DNA from: a virus
Virus record (IMG/VR): IMGVR_UViG_3300020204_000008
DNA length: 64,000 nucleotides
Reading direction: 5' to 3' (one strand)
Shown here in pieces: positions 4,011 through 50,116 of this stretch. The notes below the pieces were generated by a model, which was given only the letters and a program-made list of their open reading frames with translations, ran no database searches and was not told the DNA's origin. The position numbers and the translations under genes are program-made. The stretch's first letter is position 1. Each line of letters begins with the position of its first letter.

Positions 4011-5487
4011 TTTTACAGAAAACATTGACTCTCTTGAAAAGATGGTTTGGAATTTTATCTTAAGTTCCGAAAATGACATAAATGACTTGCGTCCATCTAA
4101 TCATGATTCGTTAAGAAGAGAGGAGCTGATCACCATGATGAAGCCCAGTTATTTCAATGAAGACGATCGTCAAGAATCATTTAAAGCGGCAGCTAAGTTT
4201 TTTAAAGAATACGAAAAGATTCCAAATCGAAAGGAACTAAAGAGCTACTTGGAAGTTAGCAATATAAGTCTAAATGACGATGAGTTTGATGAATTGTATG
4301 CAGTTAGCTTAACTGAATACAATTATGACTATCTCTATAAATACGTTAGATCATTTATTCTCTTAAGAAACCTAAACCTAACAGTCTTTGACTTGTTAAC
4401 CTATTTAAAGACTACTCCAATCGATCCAGGGAACATCGATAAGATCTCTGAAAAGATTAGAAACGATATAAGTAATAAGTTAGCACTAAACTTTTCTAGT
4501 GCGGATACTGGCCTAAATTTCTTTAATCCTGAATCTCACATCCAGATCTCTAAGACGGGCAGCCCGACTGGCTTTCCTTTCTTAGATAAGGTACAGGGCG
4601 GTGGCTGGAATTCAAAAGCGCTAGTCGTTTTTCAAGGTCGACCTAAAGTCGGTAAGTCAATGGTTCTTGGAAATATTGCAGCCCGATCATTCTTAACCGG
4701 CAATGCGACCGGTTTAGTGACAGTTGAGTTAGCTGACCGCGCCTATATGAAACGAATCGGCTCAAATATTCTAAATATTAAATCTGAAGATTATTCTAGG
4801 ATCACAGATGAGCGAGCTGCTCAACTGATTCAAAGCAAGATTCAAGAACTTAAGGACTCTGGCCAAACGGTCGGCGAATTAATTGTAAAGGAATTTCCGA
4901 CCGGCGGTGCTACTGCCATTGACATTGAAAACTACTTTGTTCGACTTGAACAAAAAATGAATAAGAAATTTAAAGTGATTGTAGTAGATTACTTAAATCT
5001 CCTAAAACCAATCAATTCTCAAAATGGTCTATACGAAAAGATTAAAGCCATCTCTGAGGAACTTAGAGGAGTGGCAATGAGAAATGAATGGTGTATCGTT
5101 AGTGCAACTCAAATTCGTAGAGAAGATATTGATAACTTTGACCTAGGCATGGATTCAGTTGCTGAATCATTTGGTCTCATTCATACGGTTGACTCTCTAT
5201 TTGGGCTTATGCGAAGTCCGCTTGAGAGTAGAATGAAGATTAAGGTGATTGCTAATCGAGATAACGGCTATGAAGAGAGCTATAAGTTCTATACGATGCA
5301 CAAAGACTATTTTAGGTTATCTGAGGAAGTCGGTCAAAACAGTGAATTCTATAGCGACGATGAGGAAGTAAGCCGAATGGCCGATGAATTGAGATCAGAG
5401 TATTCTGAGATAAATAAAGCATCAGCTGAACCCGTGTCAAGCATTCCAATTGAAGACGATTATGACGCTCTCTTCAATTCAATATAA
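4003..5487 (+). CDS. gp41: DnaB-family replicative helicase (gp41-like)
   Basis: PTGFPFLD..GGW, Walker A GRPKVGKS, KEFPTG, VVDYLNLL, SEELRG, SATQ, AESFG. Confidence 0.95.
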   Translation: MIDFTENIDSLEKMVWNFILSSENDINDLRPSNHDSLRREELITMMKPSYFNEDDRQESFKAAAKFFKEYEKIPNRKELKSYLEVSNISLNDDEFDELYAVSLTEYNYDYLYKYVRSFILLRNLNLTVFDLLTYLKTTPIDPGNIDKISEKIRNDISNKLALNFSSADTGLNFFNPESHIQISKTGSPTGFPFLDKVQGGGWNSKALVVFQGRPKVGKSMVLGNIAARSFLTGNATGLVTVELADRAYMKRIGSNILNIKSEDYSRITDERAAQLIQSKIQELKDSGQTVGELIVKEFPTGGATAIDIENYFVRLEQKMNKKFKVIVVDYLNLLKPINSQNGLYEKIKAISEELRGVAMRNEWCIVSATQIRREDIDNFDLGMDSVAESFGLIHTVDSLFGLMRSPLESRMKIKVIANRDNGYEESYKFYTMHKDYFRLSEEVGQNSEFYSDDEEVSRMADELRSEYSEINKASAEPVSSIPIEDDYDALFNSI

Positions 5488-43885: not shown

Positions 43886-44377
43886 ATGACTAAATACATC
43901 AAGCTGTACGAAGACTATCAACAGGACATCAAGACCACGACTGAGGAGACCGGCCACACTTGGACTCAAATCAGAGATGCGATCCAGACCAAGATCCCAT
44001 TCGTGATAATCACCTTTAAGGACAAGGAGAGCTATACTTCTGCTCTTGATTCTGATCTTCTCGATGACGACTACATAAAACAGTCTGCTGCAATCAGTCA
44101 CGACGGTAAGTTAATAGACTATCCGTCCATCTTTATGGTGCTTGATGACGATGTCGAATTTAAAGATAAGATACCACAAATCTTTGAAAAATATAAGATT
44201 AAGAACCTGATTCTTGGTAAAAAAGGAGAGGAATACGTAGACTATTATTTTGAAGACGGCTCGACTTCACCGGCAGGAAACGAAGTAGTCTCTTCAATCA
44301 GTAAGGACGATATGGAGAATGACGAGCATTTCAAGATAGGTTCTACATACTACAGGTTTGTCGATTTTGTGAGTTAA
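43886..44377 (+). CDS. CTS-motif protein; probable start ATG 43886
   Basis: MTKYIKLYEDY; late motif GATAAATAA at 43855..43863. Confidence 0.7.
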   Translation: MTKYIKLYEDYQQDIKTTTEETGHTWTQIRDAIQTKIPFVIITFKDKESYTSALDSDLLDDDYIKQSAAISHDGKLIDYPSIFMVLDDDVEFKDKIPQIFEKYKIKNLILGKKGEEYVDYYFEDGSTSPAGNEVVSSISKDDMENDEHFKIGSTYYRFVDFVS

Positions 44378-44419
44378 ACTTTTATTCTTTTTTAAGTATA
44401 AGGATAAAAACATTCCGCT

Positions 44420-44854
44420 ATGAACGAGGAGACCAAGACCAAGATTTCTAAAAAGTTTCAGGACAGAAGGGCTGAGGTCTCTAAGGAGATCTATGAAAAC
44501 ATTGAAAAGCTTTCCAATCTCAAGACTCTTAAGGAAGCCCAGGTCAACATGCTCTCCCTACGTCAGCGATTATTGGAGGACAATCATACTCTATTGGAAC
44601 ACGTGACTCTACTCAGAAAAAAATATAGAGACGAACGTTCAGTAGAGATGGAAAACATCTCAAGAAACCTACAGATAAGATATCAAGCTAACGAAAAGAA
44701 TGTTGTGATCGAGGGCAGGACCTCTGCGACTAAGGAATCCTTAGAGATAATTGAGAATCAGGTCTCATTCTTCAATGAGTCGATCAAGACCATCGATAAC
44801 ATCATCTTTGGTATCAAGACCCGACTCGATATAGAAAAGACCCTAGGTCTATAA
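44420..44854 (+). CDS. uvsY: UvsY-like recombination mediator
   Basis: About 140-aa coiled coil ending IKTIDN..FGIKTRLD.EK, directly upstream of uvsW; promoter motif at 44376..44402. Confidence 0.65.
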   Translation: MNEETKTKISKKFQDRRAEVSKEIYENIEKLSNLKTLKEAQVNMLSLRQRLLEDNHTLLEHVTLLRKKYRDERSVEMENISRNLQIRYQANEKNVVIEGRTSATKESLEIIENQVSFFNESIKTIDNIIFGIKTRLDIEKTLGL

Positions 44855-44869
44855 AAATAATGCACTGTC

Positions 44870-46303
44870 GTGCTAAGATTCAAAGTATCACAAGACAAGA
44901 AATTCATTAAGCTCGTAGATTCCACTCTAAACAGTGAAAAGACGAGCTTGTTTAGATTTTTTAAGCGAAAGTCTAAAAAAGCGGCATTCAATGTCCTTGT
45001 TGATCGCGGAGTGTGGGATGGATTGGACTCTTTTATTACTAAAGACGGCAATATCGCAATCGGACTGTGGAAAGAGATTTATAACTTTGCTGAAAAGTAC
45101 GGATATGACTGTGAGATCGAGGGAGCAGACCAATTCGTTAACACTAAGCTTGACAAGGCTAAATATCTTAAGTATGTTGAGAAACTATTAGACGGAATAG
45201 TCGATGAGAGAGGCTTTCCAATCGTGCCCAGGGACTATCAGATCGAAGGAGCGTTTAGAGCTATCAAATATAAGTTCTGTACCCAAGAGTTGGCGACCTC
45301 TGCCGGTAAGACTCTCATCTTTTTCATCTATAACTCATTCTTAAGGGATGGAGGCAAGATCACAAAGGATCGAAAGTCACTAATCATCGTTCCAAACATC
45401 TCGCTAGTCGGCCAGACTGCCGAAAAGTTCGAAATGTATGCTCAACCTGGTAGAGAATGGAGCGTGTGTACCATTGGAGGTAAGGACAAGTTCACTCAAG
45501 AGCGTTTTGATGATGCTGAAGTCGTGATTTCGACCTATCAGAGCCTAATTAACCTTCCAGTAGAAGTATTTAGGAAGTTTACGATAGTTCAAGTGGATGA
45601 GGTACATAAATCAAAGGGTAATTCCATTCGAGAGATCCTCTTGACCTGTGTTAATTGGGAATATCGACTGGGTTTATCCGGAACAGTTAAATTAGACGAG
45701 CAGTTTTCGGATTTTTTTAGGGTTCAGGAAAACGTTGGCCCTCTGGTGATGGTCCTTTCAGCAAAACACCTAATTGATCACGGATATTCGCCAAACATCC
45801 AGATCAAGATCATAAAACTCAAATACGATGAGTCGGAACCGATGATTCAAAAATACTGGCATCTAAAGGAGACCGGTAAGGAGATGTATAACAATCCCAA
45901 GGACTTTGGGCGGGACATGTTAGCCATCGAGAAGGGAATTATCTTCGATAGTAAAGAGAGATTAGACTTTATTAGTGATTTAGCTCGAAAATTCGGAAAA
46001 AACTCACTAGTCCTCTTTTCAGACGTCAAAAACGGTTACGGCAAGGCGATTCAGTCTAAATTGTTAGAGTGGAATCCAAATACTTTCTATATTGACGGCG
46101 AAGTTGACTCAAAGGATCGCGATAGGTTTATTAAAATTCTTGAAAATCCAAGTGACTTAACCGATATTGAATTTGGAGAAATTAAAATTACAGTTCATCA
46201 ATATTCTATTGTTCCTTTAAATAATGGTAAGTTTAAATTAGCTAAGGATATTACAATAGATGATGATATATCAGATGAGTGGATAAAAAATAATATGATA
46301 TGA
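44870..46303 (+). CDS. uvsW: UvsW helicase, N-terminal piece, plus a 52-aa foreign tail
   Basis: WDG, PRDYQ, ATSAGKT, IVP...LV.Q, STYQS, DEVH, GLSGT, YIDGEV; lacks motifs V and VI. Confidence 0.93.
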   Translation: MLRFKVSQDKKFIKLVDSTLNSEKTSLFRFFKRKSKKAAFNVLVDRGVWDGLDSFITKDGNIAIGLWKEIYNFAEKYGYDCEIEGADQFVNTKLDKAKYLKYVEKLLDGIVDERGFPIVPRDYQIEGAFRAIKYKFCTQELATSAGKTLIFFIYNSFLRDGGKITKDRKSLIIVPNISLVGQTAEKFEMYAQPGREWSVCTIGGKDKFTQERFDDAEVVISTYQSLINLPVEVFRKFTIVQVDEVHKSKGNSIREILLTCVNWEYRLGLSGTVKLDEQFSDFFRVQENVGPLVMVLSAKHLIDHGYSPNIQIKIIKLKYDESEPMIQKYWHLKETGKEMYNNPKDFGRDMLAIEKGIIFDSKERLDFISDLARKFGKNSLVLFSDVKNGYGKAIQSKLLEWNPNTFYIDGEVDSKDRDRFIKILENPSDLTDIEFGEIKITVHQYSIVPLNNGKFKLAKDITIDDDISDEWIKNNMI

Positions 46304-47292
46304 CGAAGGAACAAATAATGAATATTTTTATTGAATTCTGCGGAGCTCCGCAATCACTAGATAAATTAATAGAATATCTTGATTTTGTTATTTTATCAAA
46401 AAAGGATGATTTGTGCCAAGAGTATTGTGAAACTCATCATATTTTGCCTAGAGCACAATTTTTAGAGTATCAAAATAGCGAATGGAATCTAGTTAAATTA
46501 AAATATGAAGATCATATAAGAGCCCATGAACTCCTATTCATAGCATATCCAATTAGAAAAAATCAGCGTACTTTAAATTTCATGAAAAGTGAAATGAATA
46601 AGAATTCACAGTTAATATCAAAGTCATCTAAAAATGGATGGAAAAATTTAAAGCTCAATACTGAAAAATATGAAAATTGGAGAAATTCTCGAATTAACTA
46701 TATGAAAAATAATTCCAGCTGTCTACAATCAAAAAGAGCTAAACGTGGATGGGATACTCCTGAAAAATATGAAAAACGGTCTCAACTCAATAAAGAAAAT
46801 TGGACACCTGAACTAAGAGCTTGGAAAAGTAGAAGCATGTCTCAATATTTTAAAGATAATCCTCAAGAAATAGCTGAACGTAATCAAAAAAGATGGGATA
46901 ATATGTCACATGAAAAAAGAGAACAATTTAATAATAAAATGAAAATTATAAATTTAGATCCAATTAAAAGAGCAAAGGCCGGCGAAAAAATTAGTAACAA
47001 ATGGAAGGATCCTGAATATAGAGATAAAATGAAAAATCGAAATACTTATAAACTTTCCTTTAGGTTTATTTCTCCTACTGGCGAAATATATGAAAGATCC
47101 GGATTTTTTGAAATGATTAATGAGTTTAATTTTTCTCCATATTTTGTAAATAAATTTAAAAATACTGGAAAACCTGTGAGTACTACTAAAAAGAGTCAAG
47201 ACGCTTTAAATACAGTAGGATGGATGTTTTTTCAAAAATAATAAACTAATATGGCAAAACCAAGTAAACATAAAAATTATAGAGATGAAAAT
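46148..47292 (+). mobile_element. AT-rich HNH insertion splitting uvsW, bounded by TGAAAAT repeats
   Basis: TGAAAAT at 46141..46147 and 47286..47292; removing the insert gives KILEN-EATAVIVASY. Confidence 0.75.
46300..47241 (+). CDS. free-standing HNH homing endonuclease (Mob-like)
   Basis: ETHHILPR...NLVKL..EDH..AHELL, followed by basic helical repeats. Confidence 0.9.
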   Translation: MTKEQIMNIFIEFCGAPQSLDKLIEYLDFVILSKKDDLCQEYCETHHILPRAQFLEYQNSEWNLVKLKYEDHIRAHELLFIAYPIRKNQRTLNFMKSEMNKNSQLISKSSKNGWKNLKLNTEKYENWRNSRINYMKNNSSCLQSKRAKRGWDTPEKYEKRSQLNKENWTPELRAWKSRSMSQYFKDNPQEIAERNQKRWDNMSHEKREQFNNKMKIINLDPIKRAKAGEKISNKWKDPEYRDKMKNRNTYKLSFRFISPTGEIYERSGFFEMINEFNFSPYFVNKFKNTGKPVSTTKKSQDALNTVGWMFFQK

Positions 47293-47596
47293 GAGGCAAC
47301 GGCTGTGATCGTTGCCTCATACTGAGGACGGAACATTTGCCACTGGAATCGATTCTAAAAACCTTCATCACATCATCTTAGCCGAATCGATCAAGGCTGA
47401 GGTCACACTACGTCAAGCAATCGGTAGAGGGATGAGAAAATTGGCAGAAAAGACAAAAGTGCTCGTTTGGGACCTAGTTGATCAGCTTGATGGCTATTCG
47501 ATTAGGCACGCTAAAGTAAGAAAAGAGATCTATCGAGAACAGAAATTCGAGACGTCAGACAAGACAGTCGACTTAACGAAAAAACGACCTGAGTAG
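47251..47596 (+). CDS. uvsW: UvsW C-terminal piece (motifs V and VI), interrupted by a 7-nt gap containing TGA
   Basis: ATG 47251 reads MAKPSKHKNYRDENEATAVIVASY-TGA; GTFATGID.KNLHH..QAIGRGMRK resumes in the +1 frame at 47330. Confidence 0.8.
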
Positions 47597-47604
47597 GTCG
47601 TTTT
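47581..47604. terminator. bidirectional terminator hairpin
   Basis: AAAACGACCT-gagt-AGGTCGTTTT. Confidence 0.8.
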
Positions 47605-47666
47605 ATGCTATTTTAAAAAAAAGAATATCTTTAATCATTATATAATACCTCGGTGAAGTTAATTGA

Positions 47667-47924
47667 TTATTTTTGTCTTTTTATTACATTACGAAGTATT
47701 TCAACAGTCTTATTGTCGAATTTACCTGTAACTTTGGGAGCATGTGTTTCTTGAAATCCTTTAAGTGCCTCAACTGTTTCTGAGTCAAGTTTTCCGGTCT
47801 GAGACACACCCAACACGTTTTGAAAACTTTTCAATTCTTCCTCAGTTATGATTGGACCTCCAGGACCAGCGACTTCGTTTACAAACTGACCGAATGTTTT
47901 TACGTGGTTCTTATTCATCATCAT
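47667..47924 (-). CDS. CTS-motif protein with peptidoglycan-binding (PGBD-like) repeats
   Basis: HVKTFGQFVNE; LKSFQ..LG...TGKLDSET and LKGFQ......TGKFDNKT. Confidence 0.7.
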   Translation of the reverse strand: MMMNKNHVKTFGQFVNEVAGPGGPIITEEELKSFQNVLGVSQTGKLDSETVEALKGFQETHAPKVTGKFDNKTVEILRNVIKRQK

Positions 47925-47940
47925 TATTATTTATTTTTAT

Positions 47941-48702
47941 TTATCTATTCAGCCTTTCAGAATTTTCGATCTTTTCAAACACCTCTTCCAATTTCATGAT
48001 GATAGGGTGGCGCACGATATCCTCCTTAGACAACTGTGCTATTCCAATCTCCTCTATCTCTACGAAATGTTCGATCAGGATCTCAAGAGCGCTCTTCTGA
48101 CCCTTATTGACCGACTTCTGTTTAATATCTCCCAAGAATACCATCTTGGAATTACTGCCGATCCTGGTCAATAGTGTATGTAGGTGATCCTTCGCTATCT
48201 GTTGAGCCTCATCGATCAGGATGATAGCATTGTCTAGGGTCACACCTAATGCGAACTTGATCGGTAGGATCTCAATGTTTCCGTTTGCCTTTAGAGACTC
48301 GGTCGCCTGCTTGCCGATCACCTTGTGAAAATTGGAAATAAATGGATACATGTACATCTCCATCTTCTCCTCTAAGGTTCCCTTTAAGTAACCTATCTCC
48401 TCATCCTTAGGCACGTTAACTGATTTTATTAAGATGATCTTTTTGTAGGTTCCAGGATCCTCCTTTAAGTACTTGAGTGCTCTAGCACAGGAGAGATAGG
48501 TCTTACCCGTTCCTGGAGGTCCAGTTATGATTGATATGTCATGGTCCTCAATAGCGGTTAATGCATCCTTTTGGGCTCTAGATTTACACTTTATCTCTAT
48601 CTTGTTTGAGAACATCTTAGCTGCGGTTAGTGCCTCACGCTCTCTTTGCCAGGTTTCGATATCTTCTAATTCCTCTTTGCTTAGTTTTTTTCTCTGTGCC
48701 AT
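47941..48702 (-). CDS. phoH: PhoH-family ATPase
   Basis: GPPGTGKTY, IGYLKG...EKM..Y, DEAQ, LTRIG, GD..Q, DIVRHP. Confidence 0.93.
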   Translation of the reverse strand: MAQRKKLSKEELEDIETWQREREALTAAKMFSNKIEIKCKSRAQKDALTAIEDHDISIITGPPGTGKTYLSCARALKYLKEDPGTYKKIILIKSVNVPKDEEIGYLKGTLEEKMEMYMYPFISNFHKVIGKQATESLKANGNIEILPIKFALGVTLDNAIILIDEAQQIAKDHLHTLLTRIGSNSKMVFLGDIKQKSVNKGQKSALEILIEHFVEIEEIGIAQLSKEDIVRHPIIMKLEEVFEKIENSERLNR

Positions 48703-48705
48703 AAG

Positions 48706-49332
48706 TTAGTATATTTTAGCTGCGATCACGATCCCAAGTAGGATCTTTATGTAGTGGATCTGAAAGTTAAGGAAAGCTCGTACCGCTTTAAATTGTTTTT
48801 CTGAAAACTCAGTGGATCTTAGTGTGGCTGCGCTTAGTTTCTGTAAACCCAGTCTTATCTTTGAATTCAAGGCAGTATCGTAAATGCTCGTAAAGTCCAC
48901 GATTATGTCGCTAAAATTGATCCCAGTAACGTTATCACAATTTAGGAGCTTTAAGAACTTTCTGCCTGCCTTGATCGTCTTGATCTTTAATAGAAGGTCA
49001 TCCTCCTTTAGTGAATTATCCAGAGCCTTGCTTAGGGCGTCCATCTTTTTTATGTTTACTGCCTCTTCGGCTATCCACTCAACGTCTCCTCTATAGAGTG
49101 AAATTGAGACGTCTGATCCGTCTTCAATATAGTAGAAGTTAAGGCTCTGTATCGTTCCATTGTCCCCAAACGCCTTCACTAAGATCGGTGAGATTCCCAA
49201 TTTTATAAGGTCATCTCCTCGTTCAACCATCGATATGTCATAGTCTCCAAACGGAAACTCTGTCATGAATGGAAGAACCGTCTTTAATTCTGAAGTCTTA
49301 TCTACTGCTCCATCTTGGTCACGGTCATCCAT
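48706..49332 (-). CDS. hypothetical protein
   Basis: About 208 aa; late motif at 49350..49358. Confidence 0.7.
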   Translation of the reverse strand: MDDRDQDGAVDKTSELKTVLPFMTEFPFGDYDISMVERGDDLIKLGISPILVKAFGDNGTIQSLNFYYIEDGSDVSISLYRGDVEWIAEEAVNIKKMDALSKALDNSLKEDDLLLKIKTIKAGRKFLKLLNCDNVTGINFSDIIVDFTSIYDTALNSKIRLGLQKLSAATLRSTEFSEKQFKAVRAFLNFQIHYIKILLGIVIAAKIY

Positions 49333-49453: not shown

Positions 49454-50116
49454 ATGGAAGATAAATCAAAACAAATTAAAAAACTTGATCTTAAGCAGAA
49501 TGCGATCAAGATCTTAATCAACTCTATTTATGGAGCATTTGGGAATAAGTGGTTCTATTTCTACAATCCCGATATTGCCCAATCAATTACGATACAGGGC
49601 CAAGACCTAATCAAGTTTTCAATCAAGGCCGTGAATCACTACTTCCTAGAAAAGTGGCACCTTGACACCGACCTGCATAAATTATTGGGTCTAGAAGGTT
49701 ACACGATCAATAAGATCGAGGATGAGGCTGCTATCTACACGGACACTGACAGTGTGGTAGCAGACACTATTATTACTAGCGGAAAGTATGGCAGTTTATC
49801 AGTCGAGGATTGGTATGATCTCAACGTCTCAAATGGATCAGCCGGTAATACTCTTGCTGGTCATGAATCAGTAAAGGTCGATTCGTCTGATTCAATTTTA
49901 AATTGGGATAAGTCAAATGGACTACATGAATCTAGAGTAAAGCGAATCATTCGACATCGAGTTACTAAAGAAAGATGGAAGCTAACTACTGAATCCGGAA
50001 AGACAGTTATTGTTACTGGAGACCATTCACTTATCGTGTTTAGAGATAATGTGCAACTTGAGATAAAAGCCCGTGATATTAATCCGAAAACCGATTTAGT
50101 TTTAGTAGTAAAATAG
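49454..50116 (+). CDS. gp43: DNA polymerase B middle piece (motif B to YTDTD) fused to split-intein N part (49751..50113)
   Basis: KQNAIKILINSIYGAFGN, YTDTD|SVVADT; block B VTGDHSL; promoter motif at 49420..49447. Confidence 0.95.
   Translation: MEDKSKQIKKLDLKQNAIKILINSIYGAFGNKWFYFYNPDIAQSITIQGQDLIKFSIKAVNHYFLEKWHLDTDLHKLLGLEGYTINKIEDEAAIYTDTDSVVADTIITSGKYGSLSVEDWYDLNVSNGSAGNTLAGHESVKVDSSDSILNWDKSNGLHESRVKRIIRHRVTKERWKLTTESGKTVIVTGDHSLIVFRDNVQLEIKARDINPKTDLVLVVK

Follow-up and report, generated by a model that had tools for sequence, protein, structure and literature searches.

The locus described here raises the question of how a phage helicase gene that has been broken twice, at points 30 nt apart, could still be expressed. 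In the IMG/VR virus record IMGVR_UViG_3300020204_000008, from which a stretch of 64,000 nucleotides was analysed (the window), a UvsW-like superfamily 2 (SF2) helicase gene lies in pieces on the + strand at positions 44870-47596. Its first open reading frame (ORF; 44870-46303, 477 aa) resembles the helicase family as far as ...KILEN and then runs on for 51 residues without a match. Beyond an HNH homing-endonuclease gene, an ATG at 47251 starts a 24-codon ORF, MAKPSKHKNYRDENEATAVIVASY, whose final TAC (47320-47322) is followed directly by TGA (47323-47325); the helicase reading picks up at GGA 47330, in the +1 frame, as GTFATGIDSKNLHH..., and ends at 47596. Judged by its sequence, the locus harbours a mobile cassette with an HNH homing-endonuclease gene, of the same type as the T4 MobA element, and this cassette splits uvsW, a gene that is dispensable in T4, in the loop just ahead of the central beta-strand preceding motif V. 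The second break, a 7-nt gap led by the stop codon, may well be crossed by programmed recoding, either a +1 shift or a short hop, to which we assign a probability of roughly 0.55. The features on which the argument rests are as follows.

44870..46147, + strand: N piece of the UvsW-like SF2 helicase, derived from the host gene and reaching ...KILEN (Pfam ResIII, DEAD and UvsW_N)

46148..46303, + strand: cassette-borne C-terminal extension (CTE), 51 aa and a TGA, in frame with the N piece and conserved in 12 diverged alleles

46300..47241, + strand: freestanding HNH homing-endonuclease gene, 313 aa (phrog_12434, phrog_655), its start overlapping the CTE stop (ATGA)

47251..47286, + strand: leader (N-terminal extension, NTE) MAKPSKHKNYRD, starting from an ATG of its own, 9 nt past the HNH stop

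47287..47322, + strand: re-encoded host segment (HomR) ENEATAVIVASY, which replaces the 30 nt of the host gene for QDDVILVASF (SQDDVILVASF-like) and has TAC 47320-47322 as its last codon

47291..47320, + strand: conserved RNA hairpin of 12 bp with a 6-nt loop, its 3' strand, GTTGCCTC-N-T, ending on the first base of the Tyr codon

47323..47329, + strand: gap TGAGGAC, with stop TGA at 47323-47325; 7 nt extra relative to homologues

47330..47596, + strand: helicase C piece (GTFATG..., motifs V and VI; 88 codons and a TAG), at whose first Gly tblastn matches to phage uvsW genes begin exactly

The spacing of the N and C parts in uninterrupted relatives sets the extent of the inserted element at 46148-47329, 1182 nt in place of 30 nt. 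The first-pass annotation of this DNA had drawn the mobile element as the 1145 bp between two TGAAAAT heptamers (46141-46147 and 47286-47292), but the re-encoded strand and the gap also belong to it, and the direct repeat reflects the Glu-Asn codons duplicated in the re-encoded segment. The G+C fraction drops from ~0.42 to ~0.27 between ~46140 and ~47290, and the identity to a close split allele (L164), which is 82% in the host gene, rises to 93-97% at the ILEN codons. T4 UvsW (PDB 2OCA) matches a 91% relative with an E value of 1.5e-42, and where the uninterrupted 91% relative P0003 is aligned with 2OCA, ...LAENGKGIIIVASY is followed by GVFSTG with nothing in between. A protein search returned more than 1100 homologues, most of them uninterrupted and of ~524 aa, together with a scattered minority of 476-486 aa that end in the same CTE. 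A blastn search of the locus against GenBank phages gave no match, the relatives there being recognizable at the protein level only (~30%), and a scan of prokaryotic genomes yielded nothing relevant.

The T4 MobA element in the topoisomerase gene consists of a CTE of ~44 aa, an overlapping out-of-frame HNH gene, an NTE with HomR, and a bypass insert (Manning and Atkins, bioRxiv 10.1101/2022.08.31.505936, which cites Bonocora et al. 2011 on the same element). The first-pass annotation had proposed an analogy with T4 mobA/gene 60. The uvsW cassette is indeed built in the same way as the T4 mobA/gene 39/gene 60 element: the tail, the Mob-type HNH gene, the leader with its new start, the re-encoded segment and the stop-led insert are all present. 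In both, a Mob-type HNH gene splits the essential-motif region of a gene of DNA metabolism; the upstream piece carries an in-frame tail of ~45-50 aa that overlaps the HNH start out of frame; the downstream piece has a new start and a leader; and a stop-led insert, placed at invariant residues, comes after the re-encoded host segment. The two also share the frequent loss of the endonuclease with retention of the insert, and a 'hit and run' form in which the host gene has been re-fused (here L033). They differ in host gene, which here is uvsW and not that of the topoisomerase II large subunit, and in the leader, which here has 9-14 aa against ~30. MobA elements have been described exclusively in Topo2L, and the bypass cassette as unique (bioRxiv 10.1101/2022.08.31.505936); our literature search turned up no report of recoding in uvsW or of its splitting by an HNH gene.

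The HNH protein matches phrog_12434 (HNH endonuclease, 2.5e-19) and phrog_655 (homing endonuclease, 2.4e-11), and a tblastn search recovers T-even homing endonucleases, two of them in records annotated as mobE; where the alignment covers most of the protein, identity is mostly 26-30%. Compared directly with the defective T4 mobA, it aligns over the HNH core only (E 0.066). The ratio of nonsynonymous to synonymous substitution rates (dN/dS) of the HNH gene is 0.18-0.38 between alleles, and by this measure the gene is itself under purifying selection. Downstream, an ATG-started ORF of 19-26 codons is found in every allele. The new start with its leader, which the first-pass annotation had recognized, is therefore present and conserved, but the basic character ascribed to that leader is not: what is conserved is instead the consensus M(A)KP..(H)KNI.... 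The re-encoded segment equals the displaced host segment in length, and among the 20 alleles aligned it keeps the hydrophobic strand pattern through synonymous or conservative changes.

The 7 nt between this strand and motif V are truly extra, because no uninterrupted homologue has a residue at the joint between the strand and G-T-F. Between ...VAS(Y/F) and G/N-T-F there are zero residues in 102 of the 102 uninterrupted homologues among the top 120, and the same holds for T4 UvsW (2OCA), in agreement with the first-pass annotation, which had read the 7 nt as extra. That annotation had also kept an assembly error among its alternatives. We take coincidence to be excluded, and an origin of the 7 nt in faulty assembly or sequencing as well: the Logan assembly of run SRR7053050 is identical to the window over 1839 nt, gap included; a 92% relative from other samples (L166) carries TGAGGAT, one substitution away, at the same site; and a gap recurs in at least 26 distinct alleles, from relatives whose C pieces are 35-92% identical. 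These alleles were gathered by protein search, identity look-up and DNA pattern, and the catalogue is incomplete, so that 26 is a lower bound; among the metagenome matches listed for the hairpin pattern, most were unrelated hairpins. The expected co-occurrence of the gap with the HNH cassette was observed in full among them, since all 26 alleles listed have the cassette or its remnants. The gap is absent from ~31 uninterrupted loci and from 120 further uninterrupted sites, so that none of the ~150 uninterrupted sites has it.

The gap alleles listed share a single format, in which UAY is followed by a stop codon, 1-4 nt and GGN ACN TTY, with two exceptions: one allele has GCA, and in one a UGU precedes the stop. 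The gaps measure 4 or 7 nt, in rare cases 5 nt, and are thus 3n+1 in 24 of the 26 alleles listed. The 4-nt gap TGAC occurs in at least 10 alleles and TGT+TGAC in one; the 7-nt gaps are TGAGGAC, TGAGGAT, TGAGAAC, TAGGAAC, TGAGGTC, TGAGTAC and TAGGTGC; and the 5-nt gaps TGAAC and TGACC are found in one allele each (L033 and L071), each from the DNA of a single assembly. The stop codon is TGA in 24, TAG in two and TAA in none of the alleles listed, and the next base is C or G (at least 10 alleles have UGA C, and most of the 7-nt ones UGA G), while 36 of the 51 long ORFs of the window end in TAA. A Tyr codon precedes the stop in all 26, although uninterrupted homologues have Tyr and Phe about equally at this position (Y 52, F 50) and Phe predominates in the uninterrupted close clade. 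The codon preceding the Gly codon is NAY in most alleles (GAC, GAT or AAC, with TAC in one only) and GTC, TGC or ACC in some.

Directly 5' of the gap lies the hairpin, which in the window has a minimum free energy (MFE) of -20.4 kcal/mol (z -2.8) and in relatives reaches -22 to -28 kcal/mol (z down to -5.8), with nothing comparable in the fold of an uninterrupted allele (L001). A hairpin of 10-12 bp ending at the Tyr codon is present in every gap allele examined, a count in which the alleles gathered by the hairpin pattern are biased towards having the stem; among loci found by protein search, the exact stem is present in L023, L025, L033, L034, L166, L168, L172 and L175, and L174 has a compensated variant. 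Stem pairs were counted by script on the anchored arms of 21 alleles, MAFFT having misaligned the 5' arms where loop lengths differ. One pair is T-A in 5 alleles, A-T in 5, C-G in 1 and G-C in 9, with one mismatch, so that it is paired in 20 of 21, which none of 20000 shuffles matched; a second pair changes once from A-T to G-C; and a third is G.U in six alleles, a kind of wobble that fits an RNA rather than a DNA structure. The varying 3' base of the stem is the synonymous third position of a Ser codon. The 3' arm alone, which consists of Val-Ala-Ser codons, is common in uninterrupted uvsW, but the complementary 5' arm occurs at none of the 120 uninterrupted sites that share the 3' arm, and for this reason we consider the hairpin and the gap to belong together. 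The smaller hairpin CCTCA-TAC-TGAGG (47315-47327), in which the first-pass annotation had seen a take-off stem-loop, is present as a sequence; as a conserved signal it was rejected, since it lies outside the MFE fold and decays in relatives to 3-4 bp or nothing.

A strong, conserved hairpin adjoining the gap could also speak for removal of the gap at the level of RNA, whether the gap were a micro-intron, were cut out at the hairpin with religation of the ends, or were lost through slippage of the polymerase. We consider this very improbable, given that Rfam returned no match at E values up to 1 over 44000-49000 and that there is no homopolymer run to allow slippage. Moreover, 4-7 nt is to our knowledge far shorter than any known intron. 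A kinase/phosphatase/ligase-like group of genes upstream could be taken in favour of such processing, but it is found beside uninterrupted uvsW alleles too.

Whether any means of crossing the gap is needed depends on whether the downstream piece is used. All 15 C pieces extracted from gap alleles are open over 82-99 codons and retain motifs V and VI, and in the window both pieces had already looked otherwise intact to the first-pass annotation. Between gap alleles the C piece shows proportions of synonymous difference (pS) of 0.64-1.0 and of nonsynonymous difference (pN) of 0.05-0.41, and its dN/dS is 0.035-0.3 over the alleles, with dS saturated. Between the window and L166, dN/dS is 0.035 for the C piece and 0.037 for the N piece, with dN of 0.056 and 0.057, so that the downstream frame, for which the first-pass annotation had suggested looking for a dN/dS below 1, is under the same constraint as the N piece. 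A simple inactivating mutation, another of its alternatives, is unlikely. In five alleles (L033, L034, L039, L174 and L175) the HNH gene has been lost or reduced, whereas the gap, its hairpin and an open C piece persist, with the CTE and NTE also kept in L034, L039, L174 and L175. L033 (positions 4180-4600) has lost CTE, HNH gene and NTE altogether, its N piece being fused in frame to HomR, and the hairpin and a TGAAC gap with a TTGA overlap remain.

The evidence also indicates, from patterns of identity and divergence, that the cassette is mobile. Between the window and L166, the cassette dS is 0.6 and the host-gene dS 1.6; and the N pieces of L025 and L168 are 89% identical, with HNH proteins only 44% identical. 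The C pieces of this pair are likewise more diverged (dS 2.1 vs 0.6), which suggests that the cassette was replaced with co-conversion of the downstream flank. Mobility of this kind, seen also in the raised identity to L164, is what would be expected of a purely selfish disruption, in which the cassette inactivates uvsW and persists by homing and the downstream piece is an untranslated remnant, and some of the purifying selection on the C piece may predate the insertion. We nevertheless hold such a disruption to be improbable. The C pieces are intact even in alleles that lack the HNH gene; C-piece and N-piece dN are equal against L166 although the cassettes have diverged to a dS of 0.6; and the cassette keeps an in-frame tail, a start codon, a conserved leader and a re-encoded hydrophobic strand, all of which would be useless in a dead gene. 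For these same reasons, the comparison of alleles argues that the helicase works in carriers. A mini-ORF made of a leader and a hydrophobic strand would be useful only if joined to, or assembled with, a working helicase.

Given a working helicase, the preferred reading is that the downstream piece is made as one polypeptide comprising the leader, the strand and motifs V-VI. The ribosome would pause with peptidyl-tRNA-Tyr on UAC and the weak UGA in the A site, and the strong hairpin would re-pair as it emerges behind the ribosome, helping its forward movement. From this position a +1 shift would read GAG GAC and yield ...VASY-ED-GTF..., with the junction VASYEDGTFATG, whereas a 7-nt hop onto the near-cognate GAC would yield ...VASY-GTF.... 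The tail and leader may then hold the two helicase pieces together, and the insert may break the HNH target in an otherwise immutable stretch, which would protect the carrier allele from its own HNH enzyme, by analogy with T4. That a cassette should disrupt a gene twice, 30 nt apart, would be understandable if the protein were unaffected by the second disruption, as it is in gene 60.

Four features of the alleles point to recoding at the stop codon itself. The stop is UGA or UAG, never UAA, and is followed by C or G, in a genome region whose ORFs favour TAA; the Tyr is invariant although Phe is equally common in uninterrupted homologues; the joint never tolerates extra residues in homologues; and a hairpin that ends at the P-site codon can re-form only as the mRNA leaves the ribosome. 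A re-forming mRNA hairpin has now been proposed as a forward driver for gene 60 as well.

The first two of these features would go unexplained if the ribosome instead terminated at the UGA and restarted at a nearby in-frame start codon to make a separate C piece. In the alleles with 4- and 7-nt gaps the start would be a UUG in the 3' arm of the hairpin (47312 in the window), and in those with 5-nt gaps a UUG that overlaps the stop (UAUUGA); three polypeptides would result, namely the N piece, a 24-aa strand peptide and the C piece, and the hairpin would hide the start from free ribosomes. We regard such termination-reinitiation as a serious rival, though less likely than recoding. It is plausible on priors, coupling being common and recoding rare, and 25 of the 26 alleles listed have an in-frame TTG, from which gene callers do predict ORFs (for example of 94 aa in the window and in L166, and of 85 aa in L033). 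In the 5-nt alleles, stop and start overlap in the classical manner as TTGA, with the frame correct; the cassette uses coupling elsewhere, at ATGA and at TAA-N9-ATG, and length changes in steps of 3 nt preserve the frame of the C piece. The remaining allele, L174, keeps its stem by compensatory change, yet from the upstream stop to the Gly codon its C-piece frame offers neither ATG nor GTG nor TTG. Taken together, the alleles would require three different start solutions. The TTG is enclosed in a hairpin with a free energy of -20 kcal/mol or lower, its presence is explained by the Val-Ala codons and the stem, and no spaced Shine-Dalgarno sequence accompanies it. Moreover, the central beta-strand would be left as a free peptide of 19-26 aa, and that peptide is all that the tail and leader would tether.

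Several observations weigh against recoding, in addition to the possible age of the selection on the C piece and to the nearby TTG and the stop-start coupling just described. The gap alleles, with UAY as take-off codon, have no matched pair of take-off and landing codons. tRNA-Tyr cannot re-pair in the +1 frame (UAU U would give AUU, and UAC U would give ACU), so that a slip of the prfB type does not apply, and slip-prone Phe codons occupy the P site in none of the 26 alleles listed. Mapped onto the HNH tree, 4-nt gaps gave rise to 7-nt gaps on at least two to three occasions, always by 3 nt, and such steps favour a +1 frame that is read, by frameshift or reinitiation, over a frame-blind hop. 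A +1 shift would in turn insert D, ED, EN, RN, EV, EY or RC into an invariantly spaced motif, and the two 5-nt alleles (L033 and L071) do not fit it. An antizyme-type +1 shift, in which the U of UGA is occluded, fits the 3n+1 numbers, and an NAY before the Gly codon could pair with tRNA-Tyr at two of three positions. A more specific version of the recoding reading is that these alleles form a natural family of 4-7 nt hops, in which peptidyl-tRNA-Tyr leaves UAY and lands unmatched on NAY, driven by re-pairing of the hairpin, as the immunity device of an intein-derived HNH cassette; this we put forward as a speculative and rather unlikely extension.

The insert of the uvsW alleles is much shorter than that of T4 gene 60 (4-7 nt against 50 nt), matched codons for take-off and landing are missing, and no conserved stem-loop encloses the stop; conversely, the uvsW 5' hairpin covaries, whereas the 5' stem-loop of T4 is reported as not conserved. 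Programmed +1 frameshifts are known at CUU UGA C in prfB and at UCC UGA U in antizyme (cf. review PMC5009743). These resemble the uvsW alleles in having an in-frame UGA in a weak context, with UGA C exact in at least 10 uvsW alleles, in a +1 frame after the event in 24 of the 26 alleles listed, and in a stimulator directly 5' of the shift codon. In uvsW, however, UAY lacks +1 re-pairing, the stimulator is an mRNA hairpin and not the Shine-Dalgarno duplex of prfB, the product would gain 1-2 residues where 102 homologues have none, and two alleles have 5-nt gaps. Weiss et al. (1987) and O'Connor et al. (1989), according to later work that cites them, obtained short hops over a stop codon with reporters in Escherichia coli, in which, as proposed here, a peptidyl-tRNA advances a few nucleotides past a slow stop codon; as far as those citations describe them, such hops depend on matched codons, occur inefficiently and in the laboratory, and are not signals conserved in nature. 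Among split phage genes, nrdA of phage Aeh1 is split by MobE (Friedrich et al., as cited in bioRxiv 10.1101/2022.08.31.505936). There too an HNH gene splits the gene and the pieces gain tail and leader sequences yet assemble, but that account reports no stop-containing insert or recoding.

The tail at the end of the N piece has a separate history. Its consensus in the 12 diverged alleles is ...VPLxNGxxKxAKDIxxxDDIxDxWI, and the CTE alignment is too variable for back-translation. The CTE profile aligns by hhalign with the C-terminal part of the N half of a true split intein (that of L187) with a probability of 80% (E 1.4e-5). The CTE has no Pfam match of its own and no Pfam Hint match, whereas the L187 intein does score (Hint, 33.8 bits). 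These profiles make it probable that the CTE descends from the final part of an intein N half; every catalytic residue is gone. The leader has no detectable likeness to an intein C half. Against the tail of T4 gp39 the uvsW tail profile gives a weak result only (hhalign probability 16%), although by eye the gp39 cassette tail (...EWFTFELNGDTIIVNENDEVQING..., at the C terminus of T4 gene 39, L176 1279-1428) resembles the first half of the uvsW tail.

Dassa et al. are said to have described, in 2009, fractured genes that are split inteins around a freestanding endonuclease gene. The uvsW locus has the same order, an N piece with a Hint-like tail, an endonuclease gene, and a short leader with the C piece, and its tail probably shares ancestry with the terminal part of an intein N half. 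The junctions of the uvsW locus, ILEN/PSDL and ...YRD/ENEAT, in contrast lack Cys, Ser or Thr, the cassette is without block A, the TxxH motif and a terminal HN, and the leader is unlike an intein C half. Protein splicing of the cassette was excluded on the grounds that it lacks a junction nucleophile, block A, TxxH and terminal HN.

A true split intein does occur at motif II of uvsW in L187 (800-2930), and also in L177, L182, L071 and protein P0083. In L187 a Cys stands right after VVCVDE, and the C half reads ...NGINVSN/C, with the intein halves placed around a gene for a 272-aa endonuclease. Gap alleles that also have this motif II intein are fractured twice, by two kinds of element. A different endonuclease gene, with NUMOD3 and TnsA-like features, lies upstream of an uninterrupted uvsW in L165 (458-1321); the same position is taken in other loci by unannotated genes of ~185-200 aa, and a TnsA-like gene is also found at the P0074 locus. 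The L165 gene is apparently a further freestanding homing element of these phages. Elsewhere in the window, from 49454-50116 onward, a DNA polymerase B fragment leads into Hint-like sequence (...TVIVTGDHSLIVFRDN...). Over the uvsW stop codon itself, an inverted repeat CGACCT/AGGTCG and, after it, TTTT (47581-47604) is likely an intrinsic terminator.

What is new here, on the evidence of the alleles, is that the logic of the MobA/gene 60 cassette extends to another gene, where the gap is much shorter and the stimulator is a different one that covaries. The bypass of T4 gene 60 has long been an isolated curiosity, and the one survey of its relatives found it in topoisomerase genes and nowhere else. 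The minimal signal at uvsW is 4-7 nt and one hairpin, with dozens of natural variants available, among which compensatory changes in the stem already exist at two pairs. As a practical matter, gene callers annotate such loci as three or four unrelated small ORFs. If the recoding reading is true, the locus would provide a compact system for how mRNA structure behind the ribosome drives forward movement, and homing endonucleases could protect themselves by placing untranslated bases in otherwise unchangeable sequence. If the hop in particular is true, the exact ...VASY-GTF... would be restored, and the strategy of gene 60 would be a general solution of homing elements in several genes.

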